64,000 nt of DNA from Raillietiella orientalis. Its lineage: Eukaryota. Below, piece after piece: positions 10,480-64,000 of the stretch. The DNA is taken from assembly GCA_036172245.1 (NCBI GenBank), contig JAYWIR010000087.1, positions 186,001 to 250,000 on the forward strand. Direction: 5' to 3'. The notes beneath the pieces were generated by a model. That model made no database searches. It was not told the origin of the DNA and saw only the letters and a program-made list of their open reading frames with translations. Numbering within the stretch: position 1 is the stretch's first letter; each line of letters opens with the position of its first letter. Made by a program: the position numbers and the translations under genes.

Positions 10480-11927
10480 ACGACAAAATCGCCGAAACCA
10501 ACGACGCTGCCTTCGAGAAGGCCGCCGAGATGCTTGCGGCAACGCTTGCCGAACGCGAGAACCCTTCGCGAAACGGGTTTCGTAGGCCGGCAGCGGCTAA
10601 AATGGCCCTCGCAGGTGAGTCGGACCTGGAGGCAGGAAGTGCATCCTACTCTGCGGTCGCACCACCAAGGAAAGCGTGGCGATAATTGCAGAAACCGCAG
10701 AGGTGCATTCCGCCTCCACGCGGGGGGGATCCAATGGAGGAGGAACCGGTGGATGACAGCGTGGGAGCACAATTTGGGCATCACCCACGTGCGGAATTGG
10801 ACAAGGAGGCGACTCCAATGGAGGAGGGTAACCAGGGGTCAGCAATGCCCTCTGAAACCGCCGAACCTGATCCACCCGCACTAATATATGTGGGCCAACA
10901 GGTACGAACAACATCTCCTTCGCATGGGCAGCCGGAAACTTCGGAACGTAAGAAGGATGGGGAGTTTGTGGACCAGACCCCAACCCCATCCAGCGACCCG
11001 CCCCAAAAGGTGGCGGGAGCACCACCGTCAGGTTCCCAGTAATAACACCTGGACTCGCCTGTCGCCGTCGGATCCGCGCGGCCTGTTGGAATGTTGACGG
11101 GCTGCGCGACGACGGAAACAGACGAGATACAGCCGCCAGCTTGCAAGATTTCGAACTGGTGCTTTTCCAGGAGGTCCACATGATCACGGCAAAGGACGCC
11201 CAGGAGAGCGAAACGATCGCGGGAGGGCGGTTGTACTCGCGATTCGGCGCACGCAACACTTGTGGGGTCGCGTTCTTCCTAAAGCCAGGCATTAACGCTG
11301 CCGTGAAGATCGTGCGCATTGGGGACGACGGACGGATCGGTCAACTGATTCTCAGATGGTCCGATTCGATCGACCGCATCGTCACCAATGTGTACGCTCC
11401 TAGCGGTAAACAGGGATACCAGCAGCGCAACGCGTAACTGGAAACCTTGAAGCGCGAATGGCTGGTGGACGCGGACTTGTGAAAGGCGCATCTCATAGCA
11501 GGGGATTTCAACGTCCGTCTGCTATCAGATCTTCCAGGAGCACAGGGAAACGCGATCAAGGAGTTGTGCACCGCCATGCGCGCGCGCAACTTGCTGACAG
11601 AAATAAGCGGGATGGTCAGGAGCGTGGACCACGTCTTCCTGGACGAAAACCTGTGCACACATGTCGGTAAACCAGGGACACTTGAATCGACGCTGGCGGA
11701 CCATTCCCGGTTATTATTCGAGATGCGCCCGCGCCACAAGGGACCGCCATAATGGGATTACCGTATGTCAGGGGACTGGACGCGCCTGTCAGGAGCGAAA
11801 GAACATCTTCGCGAATTCCTGCGAGGCGTCACCCTCCAGAGATTCGCGGATTGGAACCAATTTAAGGACTTGGACCGGGAGTTCTGCGTACAGTTCCCTG
11901 TGCAACGTCTGCCCCGGGGATTCGACG
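10480..11927 (+). mobile_element. Copy F (5' part), alpha family: ORF1 C-terminus and endonuclease, interrupted at LPRGFD by A and B
   Basis: DAAFEKAAEMLAATLAERENP, TAACA junction at 11043, FQEVH, NVYAP, GDFN, RSVDH, LADH; ends at QRLPRGFD. Confidence 0.85.
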
Positions 11928-12136
11928 TTGCCACCCGGGTACGCCCAATGCGTTTATTTATAAAAAACTCTACAATCGCGGTACTAGTCCCCGCTCACGT
12001 CCTTATGCATGGGATCTACCGGGAGACCGAGACGCAGCCTGGCGTGACACTCCCCGGCAGCGAAAGGTAATGAGGAAAAACAAAAATAAAAACAAAAACG
12101 CAAAGAAACAAATGAGGTTGGAGGGCAGGGAAGGGA

Positions 12137-15100
12137 TCACTGTTCGCTGTGAGGAGGGCCCATCCGTTGCAGGAAGTCCCCGAGGTCCGTCCGTATTTTC
12201 CCCAGTTGGGGCCATCCAGCAGCTCTCCTCAAGAAACGTTGGGCATATACGATGACATCGCTCGCAAGTTGACTTACACCTTCCTTGTTGGTGTCGCTCC
12301 ATGCCGCCACGATGCCTCGGACGCAGCACAAGGCTGCAAGGGCTGCGGCTGGCTTCAGGGCGCCTTTCACGAAGAGAAGCCGAAGAACGTCTCTAGGGGA
12401 ACTGCCCGTAGGGAGACCGAGGTTCGTCCCAAACCGTTCTCAAAGGGGACGAAGGGCAGCACAGTCCACAATAAGGTGGGAGAGCGATTCCCGCTCTCCG
12501 CACCTGACACACGCAGGATCCACAACTCCTCTTGTCCAGTAAGAACGACGTGCGTTACAGGGTTAACCTCAATGCATCAACAGCAACGCCGACTCTTTCC
12601 ATTTAAGGGGCAGGATCCTGGATTCCTGAAGAAGCGGGAGCCACTTCAGCACATCCATAGAGATGGCCAGCAGCTCTCCTCATCTTCTTAGTTCTCGCGG
12701 CTGGTAGCTCGGGGTCGTGGCGTTCGCCAGTTGACCCATGGTCCAGCCGCTCATTCTCTTCTCATGTCCCTCGATGCAGCAGGAGACTTGCCACGTTGGC
12801 GTCCGACTGCTGTGAAGCGCCCTTCTCAGGAAGGGCAGCGCCGTAGCCAGGCAGGTTGTCTCTGCTTACGGGCTTCTAGCTGGATTCTCCAGAAGATTCC
12901 TCAGAGTGCTGCGGGCGTAGGGGCTGCATCGGAGACGATTCCACGTTTCGTGGCTTTTCTGATTAAACACTGCCCACGTTTCGTTGTTCTCCTCCAGCCA
13001 GGCGGAGGAGTTGGCGGGGCAGCCAACCATCCAGCTGTTCTCCATGGCCAACGATGCCATGCGTCCGAGCTGTAGGCCGCATCTTCTGATCTTCCGGCCT
13101 GTTCACAGAAGAAAAGGCGCGAGTACCTCGCACCGAGACACACGGCTGGCGAGGAGGCGAGCTGGAATGCACCACGGGGTGCTCCACATCTTTGCTGCGA
13201 TGGCCTGGGTACGCCATCGCAGCTGTTTCTTCACGCGCTCCAGCGTCAATAGGCCAAGTCCGCCGTCCCGACGAGGAGCGCAAAGGTAATTCAAAGGGAC
13301 TCGGGGCCTACCCTTGCACCAAAGGGCGATGCGGAGGAGGTCCTTCGTCTTCTTTTTAACAATTCCTGAGGCGTTGCAAACAAAAAGCAGCGGGCGGAGC
13401 ATGGGGTCTGCAAAGGCGTTCCAAATTGTGGTTCGTTCCTGCAAGTGAAACTTGCCTTCCAGGAACGGGCCGATCGCCGTCTCGACTTTTTGGAGGCAGC
13501 TGGACCACGCATCCGCAGGGGAGAATTCCCCGAACGGCACACCGAAGTACTTGTTGCACCTCACCGTGAAGATCCCCAAACGGACCAAGTCCTGCTACCC
13601 GGCCCACGCCGCACAAACTGGCACCATTGACGACTTCGCCCTGTTCACCTGCTGTCCGGTCCCGCGGTTGAACAGGTCGAAGAAATCTCCGACCGCCTTC
13701 GCCGGGATGGACATAGGTAACAGGAGCAGAAGATCGTCGGCATAAACACTTACGGCCGGCGTGACGGAGCACGAGCTCGGCAAGGGGGCTAAAGTCACCC
13801 TGTACGCTCTCAGCACCAACTCAAAGTGGGTGCTGAAGAGCAGGGGGCTGAGGCTATCTCCCTGCCTTATGCCCCGCCGCACCGGCACGCCATACACCTT
13901 GTGGCTGCTGAAAGAGACGGTAATCATCGCATTCCGCCAGCAAGAGCGCAGGTACGATATCAACGAGGGTAAGAAGCCCATGCGACCAAGGAGCTCAAGA
14001 GGAGTTCCTGGTCTACACAGTCGAACGCCTTATGGAGATCGACTGCGATCGCTATTGCTCCCCTCCCCGCGCCGGGACCTTTTCTTATCCCCGCTGGCGG
14101 CTTCAATGTGGGGTTGCCGATTTTCCCTTTCCCTTTCTTTTCTCTCCTTTGCAGGTGCATCGGCGAAGAGATTTGCGTCCATACTTCGCCAGGGAACATC
14201 ATAGGTCTGCTCCGGGCTAATTATGGAATCTGCCACCTGCCCCAAACGCGAAGCCCATAACCCTGCTAGCAATTTGGCGTCCGTGTTCACGATGGTGATC
14301 GGACGCCAGTTGTGCAATTTTCTGAGGTTTCCCCCTTTCGGAAGGAGCCTCACTCTGGCTGACTGAAACTAAGCGGAAACATCGCCTTCATGTCGGATCA
14401 GCCTTGTCAACACGAGCAGATGGGGGCAAGCTCTTCTGCGAAGCTCTGAAAGAACTCCGCGGGCAAGTTGTCGTTCCCTGGAGCTTTACGTCTCTTGAAC
14501 CTTTTGATACCGGCGAGAATTTCGCCGGTAATAAAAGGCTCATTGAGGCTTTCAATCTCCTCCTAACCTATTGCCGGGATGCCATCCGGAAGCAAGCGCC
14601 GAGCAACGTCTCGATCCGGGGGCTCCCTGGCGTGAAGGAAAGCATAGAAACTTCGCACGAGATGCCGTACCGACGCCGGGGACGGACATTCCCGGCCCTG
14701 GTCGTCCAGCAAGCTGGCCGACCCGGATTGCCAGGCTTGGCGTGCGGCCTTGGCGCGGTACTTGGCCAGGGGACCGACATTAGGGGTTCTCTCGTACCTA
14801 CGATCCTGCAAATAGGCCGTATGGTTGCGAGGACCTTCGCCGGATGCGAAAGGCAGGCGGTCCCGAGGGAACTGTTCGCAGAACTCCCGGACCGAGGCCT
14901 TGAGAAGCTTACAATCCGTGAGACTCTCGAGCGTGACGCCTCTCAGGAATTCGCGAAGGTGTTCCTTCGCACATGAGAGTCGCGTCCAGTTTCCCGGCAG
15001 ACGCGAATCCCTGGATGGTGGTCTTTTGTCGCGAGGTTGCATCTCGAAAATTAACCGGGAATGTTCCAACAACGTCGACGCAACCCTCCCATGGTTGTCG

Positions 15101-15720
15101 ACCCGTGAACACAGGTCAGCGTCGAGGAAGCCGTGGTCGATGCTGCGGACCATTCCCCTCTCACCCGCGATTAAGTCGCGCGCGCGCATGGCGGCGCACA
15201 ACTTGTTCATCGCGTTCTCTTGTGTTTCTGGCTCAGCTGTTAGCAGACGGAGACTGAAATCTCCCGCTATCAGGTGAGCCTTCCGCACGTTCGTGTCCGC
15301 CAGCGAGTCGCGCTTCAGGGTTTCCAGCAGCCTGGTGTGTTCGCGGTACCCCTGTTTGCCGCTGTGGCCATGCATGTTTGTGACGATTAGGTCGATCGAG
15401 TCGGACCAGCTGCAAATCAGCTGACCGATCCGACCGTCGTCATCAAATCGCACGCTTTTTACGGCAACGTAGATGGCCGGCTTCAAGGAGAACGCGACTC
15501 CGCAGGTGTTGCGGAGGCCGCATCGCCAATACAACCGACTCCGCGCGATCGTCTCGATCTCCTGGGCGTCTGCCGCGGTGATCACGTGGATCTGCTGCTG
15601 CAGCGCCAGGTCGAGCTCACGCAGGGTGTCAGCCGTATCTCGCCTGTTGCCGTCGTCGCGCAGCCCGTTGACGTTCCAACAGGCCGCGCGTATCCGACGG
15701 CGACTGGCGAGCCCAGGTGT
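12137..15720 (-). pseudogene. ORF2 (APE-RT-CCHC) of A, frameshifted
   Basis: ORF 14563..15585 (endonuclease and linker), ORF 14030..14353 (NWRPITIVN), ORF 13595..13981 (RQGDSLSPLLF, YADD), and the C-terminus ending at 12137. Confidence 0.88.
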
Positions 15721-17593
15721 TAGTCCTGGGAAAACGGCGATGCGGCGTCCGCCACCTGGTTGGGCGGGACGCTAGGTGGAGGAGGAGGAAGGACAGGTAC
15801 TGAAGGCACCTGTTTGTCCTCCTCCATCGGTGCCTGCGCGTCTGCCGGATCACCCGCAGGTGGAGTCGCGCCTACTCGTTCGCCCACCTCCATGGGTTCG
15901 GGTTGCTCAGGTTCCGCGACTGCAGGGAGGACTTCACCCCCCTGCTCACCCTCCTCCATAGGATTGGCCGACTAGAAAGCTTCCGGGCATAGGTGTTCTT
16001 GCTCCGGGATTCCCACGCTGCCGCTCCCTTCCGGCTTCTACTCCTCGCTGCTGGAGGGGAGGCGCCTCCTGCGTTTTTGGGACTTGCGTCCCGACTTCCA
16101 AAGTGGTGCCTCCGAGGAGGTGGATCCGCTTTCGGCCCTCAGGTTGCACTCACCTGCGGGGGCCTTCTTCGTCGGAGCCGACCTGCGTAGTACCTTGCGC
16201 GACGGGGTTTCGCGCTCGGCGAGCTTTGCTGCGAGCTCCTCCGCCGCCTTCTCGAACCCCGCGTCTTCGCCAGCGGCGACCGTTGCCGCGGGATGCTCCG
16301 CGACCTTATCGAGCGCAGCGTCATCGCTGACGGCGAACGTTGCTGCGGGCTCCTCCGCGACAATATCGAGCGCGGCGTCCTGGCTGTCGGCGCAGGAGTC
16401 TCGCGTCTCACCCTCTAAACGTAGAATGGGCTCGTCCACGCGAGTATTCATCGCGTCCGTATCAGCTGTTTGATGGACATTGCCGCGGGCGGCCTCGGCA
16501 GGAACGGCTATGTGTTACAGTGCCACCGAGCATTCGCGAAGTTCTTTTTTGTAAGCGGCGCGGATTTTTTCTCTTTGCCGGCAGTTTTCTTCTCCGACTT
16601 TTCTTCTGGCATCCTTTTCTCTTTTTTTTCTTTTCAGGCCTGAACCAGCTGCCAAAGCTCCTCCATTTCCGCGTTTACGGGAGCTCTTTCCTCCGACGCC
16701 TGTACAGAAGGAAGGGAGGCTGGCAGTTGGGAACGGCCATTTTCGCGAGCTGGTCTTTCTACCAGCTTTCCACGTTTTCCCTGCGCCTTTTTTGCGGCAG
16801 GGGGCACCGGGGTGGGGCTCTTGGGGCACCCGCGCCAAACGTGAAACTTTTCGCCGCATAGGTGGCACACAATGTTCGGGCACATTTTTCGTAGATGCCC
16901 TACTGAATTGCAGTAGCCACAAAATTGGCGTTTTCCAACCTACCAGAGGTCCACCGCTTCTTGGCAAACCTCCAGCTTGTGAAGAAGCGCCCCACCCTCT
17001 TTTACGGTGATACGCGCCGCAGCTTGACCTCCGGAAAGGCTATTGTAGCCTTGGAAAATCGTCGACTTCGGCCACAACGCGTGCACTTCTGCGTGCTTTT
17101 GCAACTATTCACGAACCGCTGACCTTGTCATGCGACTGGAGATCCCAGTGAGATGGACATCCACCGAGCGGTTCATCGTCACCGGCAAGATCTTCCGAGC
17201 ATCCACAATCAGCAGGTCGGTGATCAGGCGTCGGGCCAAGGTGATATCTTTGCATACCACCTCGACCCGCTGCCTGCCGCTGAGAACGGAGAGGCCGTCA
17301 AGAACTTTTTCGAAGATATTGGCGTTCTGCAGCGCCCTCGTAAAGGCGCGTGAAGTTCGCTCATCGAAAAGATTGCCTACCTTGTAGACTAGCGAGGGTT
17401 TATACCCCGCTTTCGTGTAGGCTTCCATCTCGGCCATGACATAAACGCTAGGCGCTGCCACCATGGCGCTCCATGACCTCGGCGTCGCCGGGGACGATTC
17501 CGGGGCCGATGCCCCTGACCCAGTAGGCGTTAAGGACGAACAAGCCTCCCACACGCCTAATTCCATCCCGGTGTCCTCTGGCAACGCTGCCAT
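15720..17593 (-). pseudogene. ORF1 of A, disrupted
   Basis: Starts MAALPEDT; GYKPSLVYKVGNL; CHLCGEKFHVWRGC knuckle; acidic Pro-rich tail ending SQD*. Confidence 0.82.
16225..16385 (-). repeat. Degenerate 57-nt (19-aa) triplication in ORF1 of A
   Basis: DAALDIVAEEPAATFAVSD / DAALDKVAEHPAATVAAGE / DAGFEKAAEELAA in ORF 16038..16451. Confidence 0.75.
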
Positions 17594-17703
17594 CGGACAC
17601 CGACGATGTGCACGCACAATCCACTCAGCAAAAAACCACTTGCCTTGCCACGCAAGCGGAGAGCAGGAAAAGCACGTCCTCTCTCCACAGCGGGGATTCG
17701 ACG

Positions 17704-20700
17704 TTGTCACCCGGGTACGCCCGCAGCGTTTATTTGTAAACTCTACACGCGTAGTACGAGGCCCCACCACGGCCGTAATCACAGGACACCTTGGGACACC
17801 GGAACGCAGCCCGGCGTGGAACTTCCCGACAGCAGAGGGGGATGGGGATTAGAAAAAAAGAAAAATAAAAGGAAACAAACAAAAAGAAGCTGGAGGGCAG
17901 GGAAGGGATCACTGGTCGCTGTGGGGAGGGCCCATCCGTCGAACGAAGCCCTCGAGGTCTGTCTGGATATTTCCCAGTTGGGGCCATCCTGCAGCTCTTC
18001 GCAAGAAGCGTTGCGCATACAGGATGACATCCCTCGCCTGTGAACCCACTCCTCCGTTGTTGCCTTCGCTCCATGCCGCCACGATGCCACGGACGCATCA
18101 CAAGGCTGCGATGGCTGAGGCTGGCAGCAGTGCGTCCTTCACGAAGAGGGGCCGAAGAATGCCACTGGAAGTGCTGCCTACAAAGAGCCCGAGGGTCGAC
18201 CCGAACCGTTCCCAAAGGGGTCAAGGGGCAGCACAATCCACAATAAGCTGGGGAAGCGACACCCGCTCTCCTCACCTGGCACACGCAGGATCCAAAGCTC
18301 CGCTCGTACAGTGGAAGCGGCGTGCGTTGCAGGGTAGACCCCAGTGCAACAGGAGCAATGCCGACTCTTGTCACTTGAGGGGCAGGATCCTGGATTCTTG
18401 CATCACCGTGGGCCACTTCAGCTCATCCCTGGGGATAGCGAGCAGCTCGCCCCATCTCAATAGTCCTCGCGGCTGGACGCCCGGGGTCGTGGCGTCGGCC
18501 AGTTCTCCTGTTGTCCAGCCGCTAATCACCTTCTTGCGTTCCTCGATTCAGCAGGAGACTTGCAACCTCAGCGTCCGGCTGCTGTGAAGTGCCCTCCTCA
18601 GCAAGGGCAGCCTCGTAGCTAAGCAAATCGTCTCTCCCCACTTGCATCTTGCTGGACTCTCCAGGAGATTCCGCAGCGTGCAGCGGGCGTAGGGGCTGCA
18701 TCGGAGACGATTCCACGTTTCGTGGCTCCTCTGGTTAACCGCTGCCCACGTTCCAATATTCTCCTGCAGCCAGGCGGTGAAGTTGGCGGGGCAGCAAACC
18801 ATCCAGCTGTTCTCCTTGGCCAATGTTGCTATGCGCCCGAGCAGTAGGCCCCATCTTCGCATCTTCCTGCCACGGCTCAGAAGAAAAGAAGCGAGTCCGT
18901 CGCACCGGAACACACATCTGGTCAGAAGGCGGGCCGTAGTGCACCAAGGGGCGCTCCACATCTTCGCTGCGATGGCGAGGGTTCCTCACCGCAGCTGCTT
19001 CTCCACGCGCTTCAGCGTCAGGAGGCCAATACCGCCGTCCCGACGCGGAGCGCACAAGTCCTTCAGAGGGACTCGGGGCCTCTTCTTGCCTCGAAGGGCG
19101 ATACGGAGGAGTTCCATTGTCCTCTTCTTATATTCCACGGTGGGGAAGCAAACAAAAAGCAAGGGGCGGAGGATGGGATCCGCAAAGGCGTTCCAAACCG
19201 CGGCCCGTTCCGGCAAGTGGAGCTCGCCTTCCAGGAACAAGCCGATCGCCGTCTCGACTTTTTCGAGGCAGCTGGAACACGCTTCCGCATGAGAGTAGTC
19301 CCTAGACGGCACATCAAGGTACTTGAAGCACCTCGCCGTGGGGATCCCCAGACGGACCCAGTCCTGCTGCCCTGCCCACGCTGCACCTATTGGCACAACC
19401 GACGACTTCGCCCTGTTAACCTGCAGTCCGGTCCCTCGGCTGAGCAGATCGAAGAATTCTCTAACCGCCTTTGCCAGGGTGGACATTGGCAACAAGAGCA
19501 GAAGATCGTCGGCGTACGATGCTACGGCGGGCGTGCCGAAGTACGAGCAAGGCAAACGGGCCAAAGTCACCCTGTACGCTCTCAGCACCAACTCAAAGTA
19601 GGTGCTGAAGAGCAGGGGACTTAGGCTATCTCCCTACCTTATGCCCCGTCGCACCGGCACACCATACACCTTGTGAACACTAAAAGAGACGGAAATCATC
19701 GCATTCCGACAGCAAGAGCGCAGGATGGAAATCAGGGAGGGTGGGAAGCCCATGCTACTCAGGAGCTCCAAGAGGAGTTCCTGGTCTATACAGTCGAACG
19801 CCTTGTGGAGATCGACTGCAAGCGCTAGGGCCCCCTTCCCCGCCCGGGGGTCCCTTCCCAGCCCGGCTGGCGGCCCCAATGTGGGGTTGCTGACTTTCCC
19901 TATCCCATTCTTCTCTCTTCTCTGCAGGTGCACCCACGTGCTTGCGAAGAAGAGGTTCGCATCCATACTTCGCTCGGGAACAGCATAAGTCTGCTCCGGG
20001 CTAATTACAGAATCAACGAACTGCCCCAGAGGCGAAGCTCATAGCCCTGCTTTCAACTTGGCGTTTGTATTCACAATCGTGAGCGGACGCCAGTCCTTTA
20101 ACTCCCTGAGGTCTCCCCCTTTCGGAAGGAGCCTCACTCTGGCTGAACGAAACGATGCGGGAACATCGCCTTCGTCTCGGATCACCCTGATCAACTTAAG
20201 CAGCAGGGGTGCCAGCTCTTCCGCGAAGCTCTGAATGAACTCCGCAGGCAAGCCGTCTTTCCCTGGAGGTTTCCGTCTCTTGAGCCTTTTGATACCGGCG
20301 AGAATTTCGCCGGTGGCAAAAGGCTCGTCGAGGCTTTTTATCTCCTCCTTCCCTATTGCCGATGCGCCATTCGGAAGCAAGCGCCGAGAAGCGTCTCGAT
20401 CCGGGGGCTCCCTGGCGTAAAGGGAGGAATGAAAACTCCGCACGAGATGCCGTACCGACGCCGGGGACGAACATTCCCGGCCCTGGTCGTCCAGCAAGCT
20501 GGCCGACCCGGATTGCCAGACTTGGCGTTTGGCCCCGGCGCGGTACTCGGCCAGGAAACGGACATTAGGGGTTCTCTCGTACCTACGAGCCTGTAAATAG
20601 GCCCGACGGTTGCAAAGACCCTCGCCGAATCCGGCGAAAAGGCGGTCCAGGGGGAACTGCTCGCAGAACTCTCGGACCGAGCTCTTGAGAAGGTCCCAAT

Positions 20701-21045
20701 CCGAGAGATTCTGGAGCGTGACGCCTCTCAGGAATTCGCGAAGGTGTTCCTTCGCACCTGAGAGTCGCGTCCAGTCCTCCGGCAGACGCGAATCCCAAGA
20801 CGGCGGTCCCTTGTCGCGAGGCCGCATCTCGAAAATTAACCGGGAATGGTTCGACAACGTCGACGCAAACCTCCCCCGTTTGCCGACCCGTGAACACAGG
20901 TCAGCGTCAAGGAAGACGTGGTCGATGCTGCGTACCATTCCCCTCTCACTTGCGAGCAAGTCGCGCGCACGCATGGCGGTGCACAACTAGTTCATCGCGT
21001 TCTCTTGTGTTTCTGGCTCAGCTGTTAGCAGACGGAGACTGAAAT
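17704..21045 (-). mobile_element. Copy B (3' part), alpha family: late endonuclease, RT, CCHC finger, 3' UTR and terminus
   Basis: ORF 20039..20986; ORF 19634..19966 (VDLHKAFDC); ORF 18986..19591 (YADD). Terminus AATAAA ... CCCGGGTGACAA at 17734-17704. Confidence 0.9.
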
Positions 21046-21358
21046 TTATCACCCGGTCACGCCGGGACGTTTATAAATAATAATAAACTGGTCAGGGACA
21101 ATGTCCTCAACCAACAGAACGACACATAACATAGAAAAATTAGCGGCACGCAGGCCTGGTAACAAAACCGCTTGCAGCGTGGGAGGAATGAGAGGAAAGA
21201 AACAAAAATCAAAAACTGGAGGGAAGGGTAACGGGTTTTTGGTTAGGCTCCGTACTCACGGGGATTTACACGATGTGCACTTAAAATGTTCCGGAGCCTA
21301 TGGGGACGCGGGTGTAAAAAGTAAATACAAAATAAGTTTATGGAGGATAGGGCAATGA

Positions 21359-24300
21359 TCACCGGGTTGGCCGCTGTTGAGCGTGTGTAAACCGGCGGTG
21401 TATTGCGGCGAGATTCCTCTTTGTCTCCTCTGTCAAATGAGGCCATCTAGCGGATGCTCCCATGTAGAAGGATGCTTTGCTGATTACCTCTTTGTGCTGT
21501 CCGTTGATTACCAACGCCTGGCGGACGGAAACTATCGAGCGTATGCAACCGATGGTTGCAATCCTTGCGCTTAGTGACAGCCCGCTCGGCGTGAAGAATC
21601 GTCGCAGCAAGTCTCTTGCGGTGTGCACGGGATGCATTAGTGCTGTTGCCAGCCTACGCCACAGTCCTTGTAGGACACCGCAGTCCAGAAGTAGGTGCGG
21701 AATCGACTCCGTCGATCCGCACCGAACGCAGTTCGCAGACGCAAGTCCCTCGGAGTCACGAAGCCAACGCTCGTTGCACTGAAAACCCCAGTGAACGAAG
21801 AGGAGCACGGCTTGTTTTAAAGCAAGAAGGAGCAGCGAACTGTCAATACACTGTGGAGGGACTACAAGTTCTTCGGGGGTGACAGCAAGTTCTTCGGCTT
21901 ACCGGAGGTGTCCCTTTGCAGTAACAGGAGGAGTGGCGGCGTCCGCCAACTCATTCGTCTTCCAGGAGCCAAGGAGTTTGGTGTTTCCCGCTATCGTGCA
22001 GAAAACCTCCCACCTCGCCGGTTGGTAACTGTCGTTTCTTGCCCTAAGGGCAGACAGCGCTGCAGCAAGAGGCGTGGCAGCCAGGGTATAAAACTTCACC
22101 TCGTCCTACAATACTTCTTCCAAGGATCGTGGAAAAAATTGGCGCAGGGGGCGAAGCTCTTCAGGGCGTATTCCTTGGAATGCCGCCCAGGATTCAACAG
22201 ACTCCTGCCGCCAAGCTTCAAAGTTCATTGGGCGGCTGGAGATCCACGAGTGTGCTTTTAGAAGTGCGGTCAACTGCCGCAATGGAAACCCGAAACCCCG
22301 CTTCCTGTATTGAGTTTTCGGCAAGAGCGAGAGAAATATTCCGCTGCCGCCGCATCTCCTTAGGAGAATGCGGGCTGGCACACACAGGGGGGATGTCCAT
22401 AGCTGGGCACACAGTGCCAGCAGTCGGAACTGCACCTGCAGTCCGATTCGCTGCATTGTCAGGATACCCAAACCAGCATCCCGACGCGGAGCAAACAAAT
22501 CTTTAAGGCGGATCCTGGATCTCGCTGGACCCCAGAGAGCGTTCCTGAGCAGGCGCTTAGCCCGCTGTTTCGCCGGATAGGGAGAGTCCAAAACAAAAAA
22601 CCGATGACGGAGGAAAGGGAGCCACAAAAGTGTTCCAAACAGTCGCCCGTTCCTGCAAGGTAAACTTGTCGTTACAGAACAGGCTGATGGCCAACTCTGC
22701 TTTCTGAAGACAGTCCGCCCACGCTTTGGCTGGAACGAAAGCGCCCAACGGGAAGCAAAGGTACCTAAAATACCCGCCCGTAAGGATCCCCAGGCGGATC
22801 CAGTCGGACTGCCCCTCCCACGACGTACCCACAGGAACGACCACGCTCTTCTCTCTGTTCACGCTCACGCCCGCTCCCCGACGAATCAGGTCGAAGAAAT
22901 CCTCGACACTGGACGCCAAGGTGGACATGGGGAGCAGAAGAAGCAGGTCATCAGCGTAGGCGGCCACGGCAGGCGTTCCCGGGCAGGAGCTTGGCAGCTG
23001 ACACAGCGTCAGCCTGTATGCTCTTAGCACCAACTCAAAGAAGATGCAGAAGAACAACGGGCTTAAGCTGTCGCCCCGTCGGATGCCCCTACGAACGGGA
23101 ATACCATACACGCGGCAGCCGATGAAAGTAATGCAGGTTAGCGCATGGCGTCAGCACGCGCGCAAATACAGCAGGAGTTGCGCCGGTAACCCAAGGCGTT
23201 CCATAAGCTCCAAAAGCAGCTTCTGGTTTACGCAGTAGAACGCCTTGTGGAGATCGACCGCGACCGCCAAGGCACCTGGCGTTCCCTCCTGCCGTCGGCG
23301 CCTGTTCTTCTTGCCTGCGGCAGTGACTTTCGCAGCAGCCTGGCTTCGCTGTGCCACAACCTCCTGCAGCTGCATCCATGTACGTGCGAAAAGGATGTTC
23401 GCCTCCATGGATCGTCCCGGAACTGCGTAGGTTTGTTCGGGGATCATTACAGATTCCGCGATACTTCCTAACCGCGCGACCCTCAGCTTGGAAAACACCT
23501 TGACGTCCGAGTTCACCAAGGTGATCGGACGCCAGTTGTTAAGTTGACGCAAGTCTCCGCCTTTCGGCAGGAGACGCACCTTCGCTGAGGGGAAGGAATC
23601 CAGGACATTCCCGGATTCACTCATCAGCGTCGCTAGTTTCAGCATCAAGGGAATGAGCTCCACTGCAAAGCATCGATAAAACTCTGCAGGGAGCCCATCC
23701 TCGCCTGGCGCCTTTCGTCTCCTCAGCCCAGCGATTGCGGACGAAACTTCATCCGCCGTGAAGGGCTCGTTGAGACGTTCGCGTTCCTTCTCGCCGACAA
23801 CACGAGCATCCTGAGACAGGAGTATCTCAGAAAGAATATCCTCCGTCGGGAATTCCGCGTACAGCGAGGAGTAGTAGCGTCTCACAATGCAGCGTACTTC
23901 GGCTGCTGCCGAACATCCCAGCCCTTGTCGTCCAACAGGCATGCTGCTACCGACTGCCACACCTGGCGCTCGGCCCTCGCCTTGTACTACGCAAGACGCC
24001 CGACATCCGCGCGTCTTGAAAACGTGCGGGCCTGCAGAAAGTCTCTACTGTTGGCCACGCCCTCTCCGAAACCGCGTGGAAGCCGGTGCAAGGGGAATTG
24101 GCAGCAGAACTCGCGGACAGATCTTTTGAGATCGTCCCAGTCCGCAAGTTCTTGAATAGCAAAGCCTCGAAGGTATCCACGTAGATGCTCCGTAGCCTCC
24201 GGTTGGCTAAGTCAATCCGCCTGCATCCTCCAGTTTTGCAACGGAGGCCCCCTGCCTGGCGGAAGAATCTCAAACTTCAACCTGTGGTGGTCAGAAAGCC

Positions 24301-24950
24301 TAGTCAACAATCTTCCTCTCCTACCTACATGCGAATGCAGATTTTCATCGAGGAAAATGTGATCGAGCGATCTTTTCATTCCAGGTTCGCTGACCATCAA
24401 GTTGGCGGCGTGCACGGACGCGCACTTCTCGATGGAGAGCGCGCGCTCACTCGGCCGGCTCCAATCGTCGGAGAGCAGGCGGACGTTGAAGTCCCCAGCA
24501 ACGAGGTGCGCCACTTGGAAACCGGAGTTGTTGAGCCAGTGGCTCTGCACCTCACCAATGAAAGCTACTCTTTCTTCGAGGTAGCGATAGCCACTCGGCG
24601 CGTAGACGTTCGTAACGACGAGATCGATGGACTCGGAACTCTTCATGACAAGCTGGCCTATCCGTCCGTCGTCATCGAAACGAACACTACGCACCGCTTC
24701 CGCCATTTTTCCTCTTACGAAGAACGCGACGCCGCACGTGTGTGCGCCGTCGCACCGCCAATGTAGCGTTCCGCCTGCGCTTCTCGATTTCGGCTGCCTG
24801 CTCGTCGGAGATTACGTGAATCTCCTGCAGCAGCGCGAGCTCGAAGGGGCGGAGGGCGTTGGCTACTAATCGCCTCCTCTCGTCGTTCTGCAGCCCGTTC
24901 ACGTTTCAACACGTTACGAACAGACGACGAGAAGACGCGATTCCCCGCAT
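21359..24950 (-). pseudogene. ORF2 (APE-RT-CCHC) of C, frameshifted
   Basis: LQEIH, NVYAP, AGDFN, SLDH, LSDH; KAPGEDG, NWRPITLVNSD, YADD; CVRCGSTESIPHLLLDC. Confidence 0.9.
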
Positions 24951-26690
24951 TACTTCTGGGAAGGTGGCAGCTTTTTGCTCGCTTTATCCGGCGAGCAGAC
25001 GGCGAGCAGCACGACTGGCTGGAGGGGACGGTCGCCACCGTCCTCTGTCGTGCTGCATGCATGTAATGCCTCCACGCCAGGCTAAACCGCGTCGGCTTTC
25101 GTGAAGACTTCGCGTTGCTTCGCCGCGAGCGTTGCCTGGCGGCCTACTTTCAATCGGCGCGCACACGCTTTTGAACGAGTTGTCCTCGTCTCGGTGATCG
25201 GAACGGCATCCTTTTCGGAGTCCGACCGGCGCATGTTCGATCGGGTTTCGCCCTTCCGCGAAGTGTGACAGGTTCTGCTGGATTGACAGCTGTCCTGTTG
25301 TCTTTTTCCGTCTCCAGAGCATCGCTTTTGGTGACGGCTGCTTTCTCGGCGCGCGCGTTTTCAGCGTGCTCACGCGCAGTTGCACGAGGGACCTTTGCTG
25401 AAGTCTTTTTTACTTCATTACGGTTCCTGACTTCGCGTGGCGCCGTAAATGGAGATTGTGCTCCATTGCCATCTTTTTAGCCATCCTCGTCTTTGGACGG
25501 GAGCACTTTCGATGTCTCCGACACGCTTGTCATGGACACTGACTTCGGAAGAACCTTTATATTCTTCATTGGCATGGCATCCGCGCCAGTCAAGAGGTTG
25601 CTCTCCGACTGCGACGGCGTGAGATTTTTATCCGGGCGTGCTCAAGAAGGATAGCTATTGCGCCTAGGGGGACTTACCATTGCCCCGGATTTTCCGCACC
25701 CCTTCTTTTGCGGCTCCCCTGCCGCGAGAGAAGGCGCGCAGGGCTTCGCGTGCGAGGTTTCCTGCTGCTTTGGGGCGACATTGCGCCTCGCGTTTTTTCG
25801 GAATTTCTGCCGTGGGGTCTCCAGGTTTTTCGCAGATTTTTTCTTTTTATTTGCGCTTTGTTTTCTAAGATGGAGCGCCACGGCTGCCTGTTGTCGCCAA
25901 AGATCCGGGCAATTTTTCAATTGGTACCCGGATAGTTTGCAATAACGGCATTTTCCAGAGGGGCATTTATCCAAACAATGCCCTTCCTTCCCGCATTGCT
26001 CGCACTTTCTTACTTTGCCAACGAACCACAGGTGAACGACCGTGCCTTCCACCTGTAGTTTGGTGGGCAGCAGACGGCGGTCCTGCATTGTAAGCTGGAC
26101 TCCAGCGACTCCGCTGTGTATGGACAGGAAGTCCTTGAGGTTGCTACGCACCCTCCACAGCGCATGAACCGTGGCGAATTTCGTTAACGCATTCCGAATA
26201 TCAATATCGGAGATTTCCGACTCGATGTCGAAAATCTCCGCCACAAATGAGTCGTCCATGGCGGCCGGGAAGACCTTCTGGCCACGGATCGACAACGGGG
26301 TTAGCAGCAAGCTTTGCACAAGTGCAGCGTCTTTGCAACGCACCTTGAAATAGCCCATGTCTTTTACGGGCATAATGGCGAGAAGGTCCTCCTCCCGCAC
26401 GCAAACACGGGTCAGTTCATCGTTGAACTGATTCCCGTCGCGCGCAGAAAGAAAACCACTCGCCTTATATCGGAGAGCAGGTCTATAGCCTTCGGCTACG
26501 TATGCTCGCAACTCCGACTCTTTGAGTGGTTTTCTTTTGACGGCTGCTGTGGCAGCAACGTCAGCAAAACTCCTCTCCATTGGCGAGAAAGACGAAGTGG
26601 AGGCGGCCGTCGGTTCCGCGATTGCAGATCCGGATGCTGTTCCTCCAACTTCAGTAGCTTCAAGTTGGGTCGACTTAGCCGTCAAAATGT
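24950..26690 (-). pseudogene. ORF1 of C
   Basis: ORF 25642..26817 has GYRPALRYK, CEQCGKEGHCLDKC and CRYCKLSGYQLKNC. Ends PSQK* at the TAATG (24952-24948). The start is approximate. Confidence 0.8.
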
Positions 26691-26755
26691 ACGACGCCAA
26701 AGATGAAGCGGATGAAAGCACGGAGACGAGAGCGAAGAAAAACACGTCCGCACTC

Positions 26756-35130: not shown

Positions 35131-35858
35131 TGACCTGAAATGGCCCCCGGTTCTACTTGCATAGAGGATTCTTTCCCTGAAGTGGCAAGAATCCGCGCTG
35201 CTGTGGCTGCATTGGGGTCTACCTTGCAACGCGCCCCGCTTTCACTGGACGCGGGGAACAGTAAACCCTTCGTGTGCCAGGTGTGGGAAGCAGGAGTCGC
35301 TCTCCCACCTCTTAGTTGAATGCCCTGCCGTCCGAATTGTTTGGTATCGTTTCAAAAGGGCCCTTGGGATACCGGATGGTGGCAAGGTTGGATGTGTCTA
35401 CAGTCTTGTCTTCGTGCGAGACCTCCTATGACCAGCAACATCCCTGGCAGCACTTTGCTGCATTCGTGGTATCGGCGCGGCCTGGAGTGAAGCCGAAGTT
35501 GAAGTCTGCATCGTAAGGGACGTCATCGAGTATGCTTCTCGCTTCCTGCAGAGAGCTACCCGATGGCTCCATTTAGTAAAACTGAAAATGGAACTAGAAG
35601 CATCCTGCAAAGGATGGGCCTTCCCAGCAGTTTTCTGTGATCCCTTCCCAACCCTCCAAACTTTTTTTTGTGGTTTGTTTTTCTCTTTTATTTTATCTTT
35701 GTTCTCTCTTTCATACTTCTCCACTGCCGAGGAGAGGCACACCGTATCGGTGTCCAGGCAGTTCCGGTATCGCGTATCCGTCAGTGGAGCCTTGTACCAC
35801 GTTCTGTATTGACTGTTGAAATGTTTTTAATAAACAACCCCGCGTATCCGGGTGGCAT
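35131..35858 (+). mobile_element. Copy I, alpha family: 3' fragment inserted antisense at the GFG site of H
   Basis: Near copy of F 31277-32011. Terminus AATAAA ... CCGGGTGGCAT at 35829-35858, followed by cgccgaaacc. Confidence 0.85.
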
Positions 35859-59429: not shown

Positions 59430-59684
59430 AGCTCGACGACAGGGACGATCCGCAAAGATCGATCCGGGAGTTTTTCAGGCGGTTCCCCTTGCGCCTGCTT
59501 CCCCGTGGCTTTGGGCAAGGCGTGGCTAACAGCTGTGAGTTTCTGCAGGCCTGCCAATTCTCCCGATGCGCAGACATCCTGTGCCTTGCAGAGTACAAGT
59601 CCAAGGCCGGGCGCCAGGTCTGGCAGTCAGGAGCGGCTTGTCTGCTAAACGACCAGGGCCTGGAGTGCTCAGGCGCGACCGATG
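59430..59684 (+). mobile_element. Copy O (continuation): endonuclease-RT linker, interrupted by Q
   Basis: REFFRRFPLRLLPRGFGQGVAN ... RQVWQSGAACLLNDQGLECSGATDV. Confidence 0.82.
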
Positions 59685-62669
59685 TTTCTCAACCGGATAT
59701 GCCGGGGAATTTATTATTCTAATTTGTTACAAAAATTAGATAATAAAGTCTTTAAAAAATGTTTTCTGTGGGGGAACACTGGGTTCTTCCACGCTACAAT
59801 GTACTCCCTACCCGGTCTTTAGACCGGCAAGGTTCTCTCCCCAGGCGCTGGGAACGGGAAAAGGAAAACAGAAAACGAAAATAAAAAGGAAATAACGAAG
59901 AGGAAAACTGTTTTATGAGGAGGTGGGGGGTAGGGAAGAGATCACTGGTCACCTGCTTCAGTCCTCCGCATCCTGTTCAAGATGGCGTCAAGTTCTGCTT
60001 TCACCGTGGTAGGTAGACGCCACTTTGTTGCCGTCTCCAAAGAGATCGTCGTGCAGAGGATGTCGTCCCTGCATCTTAAGCCTCTTCTTGTTGCGTGCCA
60101 CCTATGCACAATGCCGCGCAAGGCAGCAGAGGACTACTAGAGATGCAGCGGGGTGCAGGCCGTCACGCGGAAAGAGGCTACGGTAAATGTCCTTAGTGTC
60201 GCCTACTGTTAGATGGAGGATTGGGGCGATTCGTCTTCAGAGTCCATCCAAGGAGACACACTCGAGGATGAGATGCGGGAAGGTTTCTCTTTCACCGCAC
60301 TCCACTCAGCTTGCATCCACATTCTCCAGTGTCCAGTTAAACAGGCGTGCTCTGCTTAACAATCCCCACTGCAAAAAAAGCAACGCCGTCTCCTGCCACT
60401 TTAAAGGAAGGGTGTCGCTATCCCAAGACGCTGGGGGAGAGTTCACCTCCTACAGAGCTATTGCGAGCAGCTCTCCTCAGCGCGCAAGTCCGTGAGGCGG
60501 GGCGCTCGGGGTGGCAGCGTCCGTTAGCCCCCGAGTCGTCCACGCTTTTAAAGCTATTCTGCTGCCTTAGATGAGGCAAGACATTTCTCACGATGCACTC
60601 TCGTTGCTGCTTCTAATGTTCTTCAGGAAGGACAGAAGGGGTAAGGGGACTAAAAGAAGCCCACAGAAACTTCCAGGGCGTGTTGATAATCTTCTGCAGC
60701 GGCTGTCGAGCGTACGGTCCTCGTCGTAGGCAGTTGTATTCCGCCTCACTCGTGCCGTTGATCTTAGCCCACGCGGGGGATGACTCTTGAAGCCAAGCAG
60801 TGCAGTTCGCAGGAAGGCAGGAGATCCAAGTATTTTCCCTCATTAGGGTGACCATCTGGCGCAAATAAGGACCACAGTTAAAAAGTCTGCGCCGGAAGGC
60901 CACGAGGTTCGGGGACAATCCTTCGAGGCCTGTCGCTCTTCTGGCGAGGAGCCGTACTGGATTGCACCATGGCGTCATCCATGAGCAAGTTGCAAGGGCT
61001 AACTTCCAAAGTGTAGTTTGCAGTTCGATGTGCTCCAACGTAAGGAGGCCCAAGACACCATCCCTGCGTGGAGCGCACAAGTCTTTCAATCGGACTCGCG
61101 ACCTCGCTGTGCCCAAAAGGGCATTCCTCAAGAGGGCTTTGGTCCGTCTCTGTATGATGGGAGGGGCGGGACAAACAAGAAGTAGTAGGCGAATGAGGAA
61201 AGACGCAAACGCGTTCCACACCGCGGCCCGCTACTGCAAGTAAAACTTGCTGTTCCGGAACGAGCCGATCGAAAACTCCACCGTTTGGAGACCGTTGGAA
61301 CAGGCTTCTGCAACGCAGAAGTCCTTCGACGGAACGCCAAGGTACTTGAAGCTCCTGCCCGTGGGGATCGACAAGCGGATCCAGTCCGGCCGTCCGGTCC
61401 ACGCCGTATTTTAAAAAGCAGTGGTTATGTAGGAACGATGTAAGATTTCTCTCTGTTCACCTCGAGGTCCGTCCCGCATCGCAGCAACTCAAAGAAATCT
61501 TTCAGCGCCGACGCCGGTGTTGACCCGGGGAGCAGGAGCAGATCGTCGTCGGCGTATGCGGACGCGGCAGGCGTGCCGGGACACGAGGTTGGCAAAGATG
61601 CCAGAGTCTGCCTGTATGCCCTCAGCACCTGCTCTAAGTAGATGCTGAAGAGCAAGGAACTCAAGCTGTCACCCTGCCTCATGCCACGCCGAACGGGCAC
61701 GCCGTACACGTGCCGGCCGCTAAAAGTGATGTTTATCAGTGCGAAGCGCCATGAGAAGCGCAGGTAATTTCGGAAGACGGCCTGGAATCCCAAGCGTCCC
61801 AGGAGCTCCAGATGGAGTTCCTCGTCGACGCAATCGAACGCTTTACGTAGATCGACTGCGACCGCAAGGGATCCGGGCGCGGTACTTCCATGAAGGACGT
61901 CCCCTCCCTGGTCACAGGAGAATCCAGGATTCTCTTGCCCTTCCTGGTCTTTGCTTTCTTGCAACTTCTACCGTGTACTGGCCTAGAACAGGTTGGCTCC
62001 CAAGGATCGTCCTGGAACAGCGTATGTCTGTTCCGGACTGACCACTGAATCCGCTACCCGTTTCAGTCGCTCAGCACAAAGCTTGGCAAGCAGCTTCGCA
62101 TCCGCATTCACTAATGTGATGAGACGCCAGTTGTTTACGTTACGATTGTCTCCTCCTTCCGGCAGGAGACGTACTCCAACTGACTGGAACGATTTGGGGA
62201 AGTCCACTTGTTCTCTGATCAGCATGCAAAACCGATAAACCACGAGGGCCAGCTCATTCACGAATCCTTGGTAGAACTCCGCGGGCAGGCCTTCTTTACC
62301 TGGCGCTTTTTTTTTCTGAGCTTTCCGATATCGGAGGTGATCTCCGCCATCGAGAAAGACCCCACGAGTTTATGTTTTTGCTCCTGCTGTAACGCGGGAG
62401 CGCCTTGCGGGAGCGAGCGCTGCGCCTCGGCGCGCTCTGTTGACCCTCTTGCGTGCAGAAAGGAGTAAAAGTCACGCAGGATGCGGTTTATTATCGCTGG
62501 AGCTGAGCATTCCTGGCCTTGGGCATCCAGCAAGGTGACCAACCCGGATTGCCAGGTCTGTCTCAGCCCCAGCTTTATACCATCCCAGGCGTCGAACCTC
62601 GGGAATCCTACAGTAAAGACGAACGCAATGGTATGCCCGGTCGTTCTTCAGCCCTTGGTCGAAAGTCGG
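59685..62669 (-). mobile_element. Copy Q, delta family: linker, RT, C-terminus and terminus; host of R
   Basis: NWRLITLVNAD, VDLRKAFDCV, RQGDSLSSLLF, YADD, KYLG. Terminus AATAAA-TTC-CCCGG-CATAT-CCGGT-TGAGAAA at 59715-59685. Confidence 0.87.
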
Positions 62670-64000
62670 TGTAGGTGGACGTGTTTTTTGGCCGCTCCGC
62701 CAGCGCTTGTCTGGGCAGCAACCGAAGTTCTTGCAGTTAGCTCTCAAGTGTGGGTCATCGGTGACCGATGGCAGTCGTGCCAGAAAACAACGCATTGGAT
62801 GTAGTCGTGGAAGAGGCAAGTCCTTCCACACAACCTACAGCTATGGCGGCAACAGTCCCTGGACCGGCTTCGCAGCCGGCGAAGGCTTGGAGCGAAATGG
62901 TCGCCGAACCCAGTACGGAAGCCTTGGCCGAGGAAGTCGCTTATCTGGCCTGTGAATACAAGCCATCGCTTATATACAAGGTAGGCCCTTTTTTTAAGAG
63001 AATCATGGCGCGCTCTTCCAGCAGAGCGCTTCAAAATGCTAATGTACGTGAGGAAGATCTGCAAGGTCTGTGCGTGCTCAACGGGGCGCAGCGTGTTGAG
63101 CCGGTGTGCAGGAGCTTCAGCTTAGCCGATCGCCTGATAAATACCCCGCTGATCATGAACGGCCGTTAGGTCTTTCCGGTGTCAATGAACCACTCGGTAG
63201 TGGTCCACTTCACAGGAATATCTAAGCGCATGACGTGCAATGCCGTCAAAGAAGAATTAAGTAAGTACGGGGACGTACGCGCGCTGTGGCCGAAGCCCAC
63301 TATCTTTGAGTGCTACGGACGCCACTTGGAGGCCTCGCCGCGGCACGTGTGACCCCAAAAGACGATGCGAAGCTTCCCCACAAACTTAAGGTCGCAATAG
63401 AACCGGTAGACCTCTGGTATGCGTGCAAGCCACGGTATTGCGGCTAGTGCGATGCGGTCGGACACATCCGAAAGAGGTGCCCGAACATCGTATGCTACTT
63501 GTGCGGGGAAAAGGGACACGTCCGTCGCGTGTGCCCTAAACGCCTCAACCCAATTTCCTCGGCCGCCAAAATGGCGCAAGGGAAATTGGAAAACCGAGAA
63601 ATTGGACGAGAAAAGCTGCCAGGAACCCGAGCTCCAAGCGCGGCGTCGGAGAAAAATCTCCTTGAAACCGCAGAGGGAGAACAGGGCTGGCAGCTAGTCA
63701 AAGCCAAAAAAGAGAAACATGACAAGGATGTCCCGAAGAAAGGAGAGAAGGCGGCGTCTGGAACAAACGCTAAATCGGTACCGCGCGAAAAAACTCTCCG
63801 AGAATGCACGGCTACGCTGGAGCGCATTGACGTTCCCGCCGACAACACCGGAGGCGATACGGCTTCAATCGATTTTCCCGCCGCGACGGTTGTGCGCGAA
63901 AACCCACCCCCTGCTTGCGAAGAGTGTCAGCCGGGCTACAAACTCGCCAAAACCGGGGACGCAGCCCTCAACAAGTCCGCGGAGGAGCTTGCGGCAACGC
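62670..64000 (+). mobile_element. Copy R, alpha family: 5' end and ORF1 (ATG 62768), inserted antisense at the (G)FD site of Q; runs off the window end
   Basis: GGACGTGTTTTTT at 62677; EYKPSLIYKVG; CYLCGEKGHVRRVC. The host strand reads 'TFDQGLKNDRAY' from the junction. Confidence 0.87.

Follow-up and report, generated by a model that had tools for sequence, protein, structure and literature searches.

How does a long interspersed nuclear element (LINE) come to lie nested in copies of its own kind? The question is raised by a stretch of 64,000 nucleotides (nt) of Raillietiella orientalis (assembly GCA_036172245.1, contig JAYWIR010000087.1, positions 186,001 to 250,000), here called the window, which has a G+C content of 53-60% throughout and consists almost wholly of decayed LINE copies forming a nested cluster. 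One LINE family in it, which we call alpha, has five copies with a visible end (A, B, F, I and R), and all five lie antisense to their host element at one site, GG(A/T)TTCG(A/G)(C/G)G^. The codons there are those for G-F-(G/D) in the motif LPxGF(G/D)EGxxN, in the part of the second open reading frame (ORF2) that separates the endonuclease from the reverse transcriptase (RT). We consider it likely that alpha is a sequence-specific LINE that targets itself and its kin and acts through target-primed reverse transcription. Our sample is this one window with its five copies, in which the alpha family is dead.

The elements were first mapped with full-length A as reference (the reverse complement of 11929-17690, the true 3' end being 11928), and a nucleotide profile made from A, B, the element beta and Host1 (coordinates 1-6061) was searched against the window, which it split into 31 matched segments. 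On this 6061-position model the host breaks fall at 2977-2985; the alignment of Q starts at 2954 and its F-D codons align at the site. A preliminary description of this DNA had placed five alpha copies antisense at the same LPxGF(G/D) codons, and the breaks and opposite orientations bear this out; its six named junctions are all present, within 1-4 nt of where it had put them. It had also located the site in the linker of ORF2, a fair term for a position about 75 residues past the Pfam endonuclease match and about 90 before the residue aligned with position 441 of human ORF2p.

The four alpha 3' junctions agree to within 1 nt of the same host base. Read in host sense, with a slash at the junction, they are CTGCCCCGGGGATTCGACG/TTGCCACCCGGG for A (11927/11928, the Host1 side also being written CCCCGGGGATTCGACG, followed by A), GGGGATTCGACG/TTGTCACCCGGG for B (17703/17704, on the duplicated target copy), CGAGGTTTCGGGG(A)/TGCCACTTGG for F in Host2 (~32011) and CCAGGTTTCGGCG(A)/TGCCACCCGG for I in Host3 (~35858). 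On the 5' side, B ends at ~29077 and is followed by a decayed target copy, GGAGTCATCG, and then by AAGGGGCTCGCAAC of Host1 (EGARN); beyond A come the duplicated target and then B; and R starts at ~62667, adjoining the target retained in Q, the whole reading ACTTTCGACCAAGGGCTGAAGAAC (TFDQGLKN). The target can be written as GGATTCGACGAAGG and the junction form after insertion as GGATTCGACGTTGTCAC. All four alpha 3' ends and all three full-length alpha 5' ends in the window correspond to one host position, and signature scans of the window, which recovered 8 true 3' ends (plus 3 spurious matches) and 7 full-length 5' ends over all families, gave no further alpha end of either kind. The chance that one more hit falls at the same position (+/-1 nt) and in the same orientation of a ~5.76 kb element is ~3/11,500; with at least three events structurally independent, we calculate by our own arithmetic a probability of coincidence below ~1e-7. 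The coordinates of the elements, hosts and junctions are collected in the table.

Table. Alpha copies, their hosts and other LINE features of the window. Profile positions refer to the 6061-position LINE model; orientation is that of the insert relative to its host.
Feature	Position	Strand	Details
a0, alpha copy, RT region (profile 3806-4826)	1..1020	-	3' side off the window, upstream part cut by the 5' end of gamma W; uninformative on the target site
X1, probable downstream remainder of delta Host2 (profile 3297-3539)	10228..10488	-	83% identical to Q
Second copy of the Host2 target	10489..10499	-	GGTTTCGGCG+A, at the 5'-truncated end of F/Host1; target-site duplication of F, 9/10 to 32012-32021
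Host1 5' half, the 5' part of alpha F (profile ~1321-2980)	10500..11927	+	end of ORF1 and endonuclease up to ...QFPVQRLPRGFD
Target in Host1, left duplication copy	11915..11927	+	CGGGGATTCGACG; nick after 11927
Alpha A, full-length, 5.76 kb	11928..17690	-	5' end ...GCTGTGGAGAGAGGACGTGC; 3' end AATAAA...CCCGGGTGGCAA, no poly(A)
Right duplication copy, between the 5' end of A and the 3' end of B	17691..17703	+	CGGGGATTCGACG, 13/13 to 11915-11927
Alpha B, 3' part (profile 2554-6060)	17704..21045	-	intact empty target site (GGATTCGGCGAGG, at 20632)
Beta, full-length, other clade	21046..26760	-	sense in the endonuclease domain of B, profile 2554-2561, duplication AAAT
Alpha B, 5' part (profile 2-2561)	26761..29077	-	full-length 5' end
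Decayed target copy, from the B 5' end to the resumption of Host1	29076..29085	+	GGAGTCATCG, 7/10 to GGATTCGACG
F, Host1 3' half (profile 2977-6060)	29086..32011	+	resumes EGARNERAYL; ends ...GTGGCA(T) in Host2
Host2, delta 5' part	32012..33397	-	endonuclease up to ...QFPVNCLPRGFG; target GGTTTCGGGG at 32012-32021
K, delta 3' part (profile 4187-6058)	33392..35131	-	joined to I by microhomology, no duplication
Alpha I, 5'-truncated (profile 5199-6060)	35132..35858	+	87% to the F tail; ends ...GTGGCA(T) in Host3
Host3, second delta 5' part	35859..37100	-	endonuclease up to ...QFPFHQLTPGFG; target GGTTTCGGCG at 35859-35868
Q, delta host, downstream part (profile ~2975-6060)	59685..62666	-	starts with the retained target ACTTTCGACC (62657-62666), then AAGGGCTGAAGAAC
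Alpha R, full-length 5' end	62667..64000	+	...CGGTGTAGGTGGACGTGTT...; antisense in Q, runs off the window
U+Y in V+T	37596-38591 + 45092-49106 in 37127-37620 + 49108-51035	+ in -	antisense, endonuclease region, ~2250; 10-nt duplication GCGCAGGAGA/GCGCAGGAAA
SM in N	55337-59436 in 54449-55336 + 59437-59682	- in +	antisense, profile 2903, GAGCTCG^ACGAC; no duplication, no host loss
Q in N			profile ~3150
E1 in X2+Z			between profile 3222 and 3421
Z 3' end in W			profile ~1200
Delta elements in V			sense, profile ~2790
3' terminus, example	11928-11972	-	
3' terminus, example	21046-21090	-	
3' terminus, example	49062-49106	+	

Identity tables, together with FastTree trees of four regions, divide the elements into four related clades, with a fifth, distant family that holds an 813-residue open frame at 39705-42146. 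The alpha clade comprises A, B, Host1/F, I, a0 and R: A, B, Host1 and a0 group together in the RT tree (support 1.0), Host1 with I (1.0) and A with B (0.93) in the tail tree, and the head tree splits A, B and R from beta and gamma (0.999). The beta clade consists of beta, E1, U+Y, Z, X2 and N, and the gamma clade of T+V, W and SM; in the tree of the apurinic/apyrimidinic endonuclease (APE) region gamma, represented by SM, is sister to alpha (0.91). To delta belong K, K' and Q, found together in the RT tree, and X1, assigned by its identity to Q. Host2 and Host3, most probably 5' parts of delta elements, pair in the APE tree (0.97), where Host1 groups with A and B (local support 0.999). The hosts therefore come from two families, as the preliminary description had held: Host1 is an alpha element, and Host2, Host3 and Q are delta. 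Its statement that alpha enters "other" retrotransposons is right for the delta hosts and falls short for F, a member of alpha's own family hit by both A and B.

The target itself is conserved in the four related clades of the window. A comparable place in distant L1 relatives carries the motif in 1 of 89 (P0009), a loose pattern matching in 7 of the 89, so that the earlier characterization as a protein-constrained motif of related LINEs applies to the clades of the window and to hardly any of the more distant relatives. The occupied sites read TTCGACG, TTCGGGG and TTCGGCG, with TTCGACC in the retained copy; homologous sites without an insert read TTCGGCG (B), TCCGGCG in rearranged surroundings (A, whose own degenerate site is empty, LPFASGEGPRN), TTCGGAG (beta and Y), TTCGGGA (E1), TTTGGGC (N) and TTTGGTA (SM). 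A requirement for TTCG-R-S-G/C fits 4/4 occupied versus 1/7 unoccupied sites, which is only suggestive, as the pattern was read from the occupied sites and occupancy tracks clade. The 10-mer GGWTTCGRSG occurs eight times on both strands of the window (five occupied or duplicated copies, the intact site of B and two unrelated instances). Both uses of the Host1 site have in common only the 13-nt duplicated sequence and one native flank, and this bounds the essential target; the flank in question is set by the order in which A and B inserted.

The same position could in principle reflect a looser nick preference (for example ...TCG/CG^ in a short G+C-rich context) combined with a general tendency of LINEs to enter other LINEs antisense, the linker motif being the best-conserved instance and the specificity overstated. 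We regard this as unlikely, although several observations agree with it. Non-alpha events are also mainly antisense in LINE ORF2 (8 antisense versus 3-4 sense), the SM and Z nicks likewise come after ...CTCG^, the site shared by T and W adjoins another TTCGAC (GCGTTCGAC, RT motif KAFD), and the TTCGRSG of the linker is the only instance of this 7-mer common to three or more elements at one profile position. However, the window contains 51 TTCGRSG sites, and all five alpha events are at one homologous position within 1 nt. The non-alpha elements, moreover, use other positions despite very similar termini (the 5' ends of the other clades read ...GGACGTGTTTTT). About 10 non-alpha insertions lie elsewhere, at profile ~1200, ~2250, ~2554, ~2790, 2903, ~3150, 3222-3421 and 3803-3806, and among them a site is shared only by T and W.

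The structure of the junctions indicates real and separate insertions. The two 13-nt target copies around A are identical. For F, the target in Host2 recurs at 10490-10499 with 9 of 10 nt unchanged, exactly where the truncated 5' end of F meets minus-strand delta sequence, and because there are only 8 instances of the 10-mer in the window the placement of this copy is not due to chance. The right copy at B is decayed, as fits the ~18% divergence between A and B, and Q retains a target copy beside R. Flanking duplications, 10-13 nt long, occur at A, at F and, decayed, at B. At I there is a host deletion in their place, K probably being the remainder of Host3 after ~1.2 kb of host sequence was lost when I inserted. 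The two halves of Host1 rejoin without loss or gain (...LPRGFD/EGARNERAYL) and are collinear with intact A and B, which makes Host1 a single alpha element, F, split by B and A. The positions and orientation of the events, their duplications, their nesting and their separate origin are directly apparent in the window.

These observations bear on a second alternative, in which copying at the DNA level, through segmental or tandem duplication, unequal crossing-over or co-mobilization of a host LINE with its nested alpha, multiplied one or a few ancestral host/alpha chimeras, and the junction was inherited and not re-created. Alignments do cross the junctions (11084-14839 against 32855-29084 at 71.6%, 31276-33284 against 35130-37100 at 74%), the trees pair F with I and Host2 with Host3, A and B are adjacent direct repeats ~5772 bp apart, and the host and insert halves of Host1/A versus Host2/F differ little (73.0% vs 77.4%). 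Nevertheless we judge this improbable. F, an insert in Host2, in turn contains A and B, which means that two events or more cannot be copies of each other or of a single chimera. In the identity tables and trees Host1 has the uninterrupted A and B as closer relatives than Host2 or Host3, and since an interrupted LINE cannot yield uninterrupted A and B, Host1 must have been hit separately from the delta hosts. The inserts also differ in 5' extent and junction type: R is full length, F is truncated at ~1321 with a duplication, and in I, truncated at 5199, microhomology goes with the loss of ~1.2 kb of host. No pair of blocks has more than one junction in common.

The pair F/Host2 and I/Host3 shows a step in identity at the junction. 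The tails of F and I are identical at 633/726 positions (87.2%), and Host2 and Host3 at 904/1212 (74.6%; z = 6.6); with CpG columns removed the values are 88.4% and 77.1% (z = 5.6), and in sliding windows the inserts range over 83-91% and the hosts over 69-81%. If one chimera had been copied, both sides should have decayed equally, and the step therefore speaks for separate events. The preliminary description had named host and insert trees as the means by which a duplicated ancestral chimera would be recognized, and within the window that explanation fails, given the double role of F, the target-site duplications, the two host clades and the unequal identities. A common 5' border of Host2 and Host3 (33284/37100) was considered as proof of duplication and rejected: it is the end of Host3 only, and Host2 reads 113 nt further, through a possible start codon. 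Spread of a single insertion to homologous positions by ectopic gene conversion or recombination within the cluster, for which the homology of the hosts around the site, the density of related sequence and the carriage of duplicated targets could be cited, is very improbable, as it needs tracts with up to 5.7 kb of heterology between hosts 62-75% identical and leaves unexplained the differing 5' truncations, the perfect 13-nt duplication at A beside the decayed one at B, and the alternating nesting.

We thus return to site-specific insertion by alpha, for which the preliminary description had also claimed the destruction of host ORF2, and everything that can be tested inside the window agrees with it. 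Several points nevertheless weigh against it. The sample is one 64 kb window and five copies, and the consensus was read after the fact from four host sites. If the 7-mer core alone were recognized, use of other sites among the 51 would be expected, so recognition must reach beyond it; in addition, the perfect site in B (GGATTCGGCG) is empty, as are the near-sites in E1, beta and Y (TTCGGGA, TTCGGAG). SM, whose lineage the APE tree makes sister to alpha, went in antisense at a point 77 nt upstream from the alpha site and made no duplication. At the 5' junction of F the duplicated target is accompanied by ~310 nt of missing host sequence and by filler, a combination not expected under a simple model. 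The pairs F/Host2 and I/Host3 agree in topology and differ only in depth, and gene conversion of the F and I tails could mimic this. The A/B tandem could have arisen through unequal crossing-over of the duplicated targets instead of a second insertion. Finally, no alpha copy has an intact ORF2, and the decayed copies say nothing on present activity.

The geometry of the junctions suggests how insertion might proceed, along steps that follow the established model of target-primed reverse transcription for L1 and R1. The host sense strand ...GRSG-3' continues straight into the complement of the alpha 3' end. The alpha endonuclease would nick the host sense strand after the last G of 5'-GG(A/T)TTCG(A/G)(C/G)G^-3', and the free 3'-OH would prime cDNA synthesis from the 3' end of alpha RNA, giving a new copy antisense to the host. 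The 10-13 nt duplications imply a second cut upstream on the other strand, which would lie 10-13 nt away and produce a target-site duplication of 10-13 bp. We infer both the order of the two nicks and the seat of the specificity, which may be the endonuclease, as in R1Bm (PMC1919474), and/or pairing of read-through RNA with the target. As the motif is present in both alpha and its sister clade delta, alpha would enter delta elements and older alpha copies and break their ORF2, and the outcome would be recursive nests of alternating orientation, such as Host2 containing F and F containing B and A. A duplicated target copy that survives beside the insert could be hit again, giving head-to-tail tandems such as A next to B, and the perfect duplication at A beside the decayed one at B favours insertion of B before A.

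Two further candidates were rejected. Pairing of CCCGGG at the alpha 3' end with CCCCGGGG of Host1 was discarded because the other hosts lack that sequence. The antisense host fragment does not behave as part of a mobile alpha unit: B is without it, the fragments have differing outer ends (at profile ~1321, ~1600 and ~1716 as judged from coordinates in the window), and the outer end of F carries the duplicated target of Host2.

Judged by its sequence, alpha is a LINE of the L1 superfamily, ~5.76 kb long, with ORF1 and an ORF2 that has an APE endonuclease, an RT and a weak zf-RVT match. Among the longer open frames, Pfam recognizes Exo_endo_phos and RVT_1 domains, the former in the Host2 ORF (1.5e-9) and at 54481-55434 (3.5e-6). 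The endonuclease of alpha itself (P402, the ORF of A) has no Pfam match and no match by sequence to a solved structure in the PDB; an APE domain is predicted for it from 49% tblastn identity to the Host2 ORF and from the motifs WNVNG, LQE(I/T)H, GDF(N/S) and IDH in the translations. The best solved-structure matches to the RT of F are human LINE-1 ORF2p chains (E ~1e-30), with R2 proteins at 1e-7 to 1e-10. The zf-RVT match in the C-terminal region of F (31047-31787) scores 20.5 bits (E 7.7e-4), under the 27.5-bit cut-off, in copies that are decayed. The closest proteins in a large database are ~30% identical and comprise unnamed metagenome proteins and L1-like proteins of fish and plants. A single-protein query of metagenome and genome contigs found no relatives, and a narrow alignment query found only two distant metagenome loci (L001 and L002, 28-32% identity) and none in genome or viral contigs.

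A poly(A) tail at the 3' end is typical of L1 proper. All 11 3' ends examined terminate as ...CCGGGTG(N)2-7 and are without a long A run, their A tracts reaching no more than AA to AAAAA, so alpha departs from L1 in this respect. The last ~45 nt of these 11 elements form a 3' terminus common to all clades, with AATAAA, a short hairpin and TG..AA; the hairpin is CCCGG-N5-CCGGG, or CGGG-CGTA-CCCG in A and B. The stem of this hairpin is kept, with compensatory pairs at 0/7, which gives no covariation support.

Several other features of the cluster were noted. The 5' junction of F contains, at 10451-10488, 9 nt of filler and a perfect 13+3+13 nt palindrome (10451-10479; CCGATGGCGGAGA TCG TCTCCGCCATCGG) whose inner arm is the start of X1. 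Besides A and B there is a second tandem, of delta elements on the minus strand, in which the 3' end of Host3+K (33392-33397) directly adjoins the 5' end of Host2 (33398); the 5' region of Host2 has only a short possible ORF (MATPRQSRESS...) ahead of ORF2. The left part of the window, 2141-10228, de-nests poorly: the 3' end of Z+X2 (beta, minus strand) is in W at ~1200 and its truncated 5' end is against X1 (delta). From this layout we suspect that the halves lacking in a0, W, T/V, K' and Host2 were lost in a large deletion or rearrangement. At 39705-42928 (minus strand) lies the element of the distant LINE family, with the longest open frames of the window (813 and 242 residues; RVT_1 2.7e-27) and ~30% identity to its best database relatives; it is presumably the youngest element in the window.

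The non-alpha insertions show patterns of their own. By our reading of the segmentation, insertions of LINEs into LINEs are antisense in ~13 cases and sense in 3-4. The antisense set consists of the five alpha copies, T/V in K', W in a0, U+Y in T/V, SM in N, Q in N, E1 in X2+Z, Z in W and the long-ORF element in U+Y; the sense set comprises beta in B, two delta elements in V, and K' next to an ORF1 fragment. U+Y is one beta-clade element in a gamma host, itself split by the long-ORF element at ~38.6-45.1 kb. A third recurrent site at ~2250 was considered and dropped, since U and Y are parts of one element and T and V the halves of its host, which leaves a single event with a 10-nt duplication. 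SM, likewise a single element, has both its ends and is internally deleted (poor match over 1186-2027, nothing over 3033-4507); the segment S (55337-56757), a candidate alpha copy at a non-motif site, proved to be the 3' part of this gamma-lineage element, in N at 2903.

W (1021-1903, plus strand) and T (49108-51035, minus strand) are gamma elements with full-length 5' ends that abut a0 (1-1020, minus strand) and K' (51036-53165, plus strand), respectively. The two are 69-76% identical, each has 11 nt after CACGTCC at its end, and both ends join the same host column, profile 3806, antisense. This column lies at the codons for H-K-A-F-D in RT motif A, which intact copies have as CATAAGGCGTTCGAC; only the 5' junctions are within the window, and the hosts belong to different clades, a0 to alpha and K' to delta. 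T and W may represent a second site-specific lineage.

R1 and R2 are LINE lineages that each occupy one fixed site of the conserved, multicopy 28S rDNA. Alpha resembles them in the use of a fixed site; their target is a host gene array and not retrotransposons. More generally, the known targets of sequence-specific LINEs are rDNA, telomeres, small RNA genes, microsatellites, DNA transposons and long terminal repeat (LTR) elements. Alpha has traits of the sequence-specific APE LINEs, the class of R1, TRAS and Tx1, namely 3' junctions at the same nucleotide in independent copies and a duplication of constant sequence and length. LINEs of the Tx1 clade, which is described as found in animals, are reported at fixed sites in other mobile elements: Tx1 in the piggyBac-type transposon Tx1D, the crocodilian Tx1-Mar in Mariner-N4, Tx1-9_AMi in Harbinger, and two further crocodilian families, Tx1-8_Crp and Tx1-4_AMi, in LTR retrotransposons (PMC4494074); a review also mentions "transposons" among LINE targets (PMC4640811). 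Like these, alpha is an APE-type LINE of the wider L1 group with copies at a fixed position of another multicopy mobile element, and a fixed target in a repeat is seen in 5/5 alpha copies of the one window. Unlike theirs, its target is an ORF2 coding motif of LINEs, including those of its own family, and it is always entered antisense.

Insertion into kin is described for Zepp (Chlorella, Coccomyxa) and ZeppL (Chlamydomonas), L1 LINEs that nest in their own copies and form putative centromeres (PMC8226300, PMC3446292, PMC9940879, bioRxiv 2025.03.28.645958). Alpha shares with them the insertion into existing copies and the nested, partly tandem clusters richer in G+C: Host2 contains F, which contains B and A, the latter two in tandem. 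In the parts of these sources on which we draw, Zepp and ZeppL are described without a nucleotide-level target, whereas alpha has a defined site, orientation and duplication. Similarly, the non-LTR element CNL1 of Cryptococcus neoformans inserts preferentially into its own copies in arrays, its "precise sequence specificity undefined" in the passage concerned (PMC12810828); alpha differs from it as an APE/L1-type element with a defined site. Tandem dimers of transposons have been attributed to double insertion at one target site (bioRxiv 158386 / PMC5932611), and as described there they resemble A and B, two head-to-tail copies separated by one copy of the duplicated target (A, 13 nt, B); in alpha, the duplication restores a specific target, and its reuse follows from this. 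In a search of open-access text we found no prior description of a LINE that has an ORF2 codon block as its target. What is new here is a base-pair target for a kin-nesting LINE, which is a coding motif of its own ORF2 family, is used on one strand and is regenerated by the duplication, and this regeneration explains nesting and tandems alike.

More speculatively, and with considerable doubt on our part, kin ORF2 may serve as a shared landing pad in the way that rDNA does for R1 and R2, with sister lineages each owning a different codon block: alpha the G-F-G/D codons of the linker, and the lineage of T and W the H-K-A-F-D block in motif A of the RT, where hosts from two clades were hit at an identical base. 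With each insertion a competitor or an older relative would then die, and together the insertions would build a self-perpetuating nested cluster. Such a landing pad, if real, would provide a sequence-level mechanism for Zepp-like, possibly centromeric, LINE clusters.

The alpha system itself would explain at the base-pair level how such LINEs pile into nested clusters. If it holds true genome-wide, it would be a clear case of a retrotransposon living as a parasite on its own kin and inactivating them, would supply a natural APE endonuclease whose recognition site is of the 10-nt class, and would offer a testable mechanism for the growth of LINE-only clusters, which are candidate centromeres in some algae.

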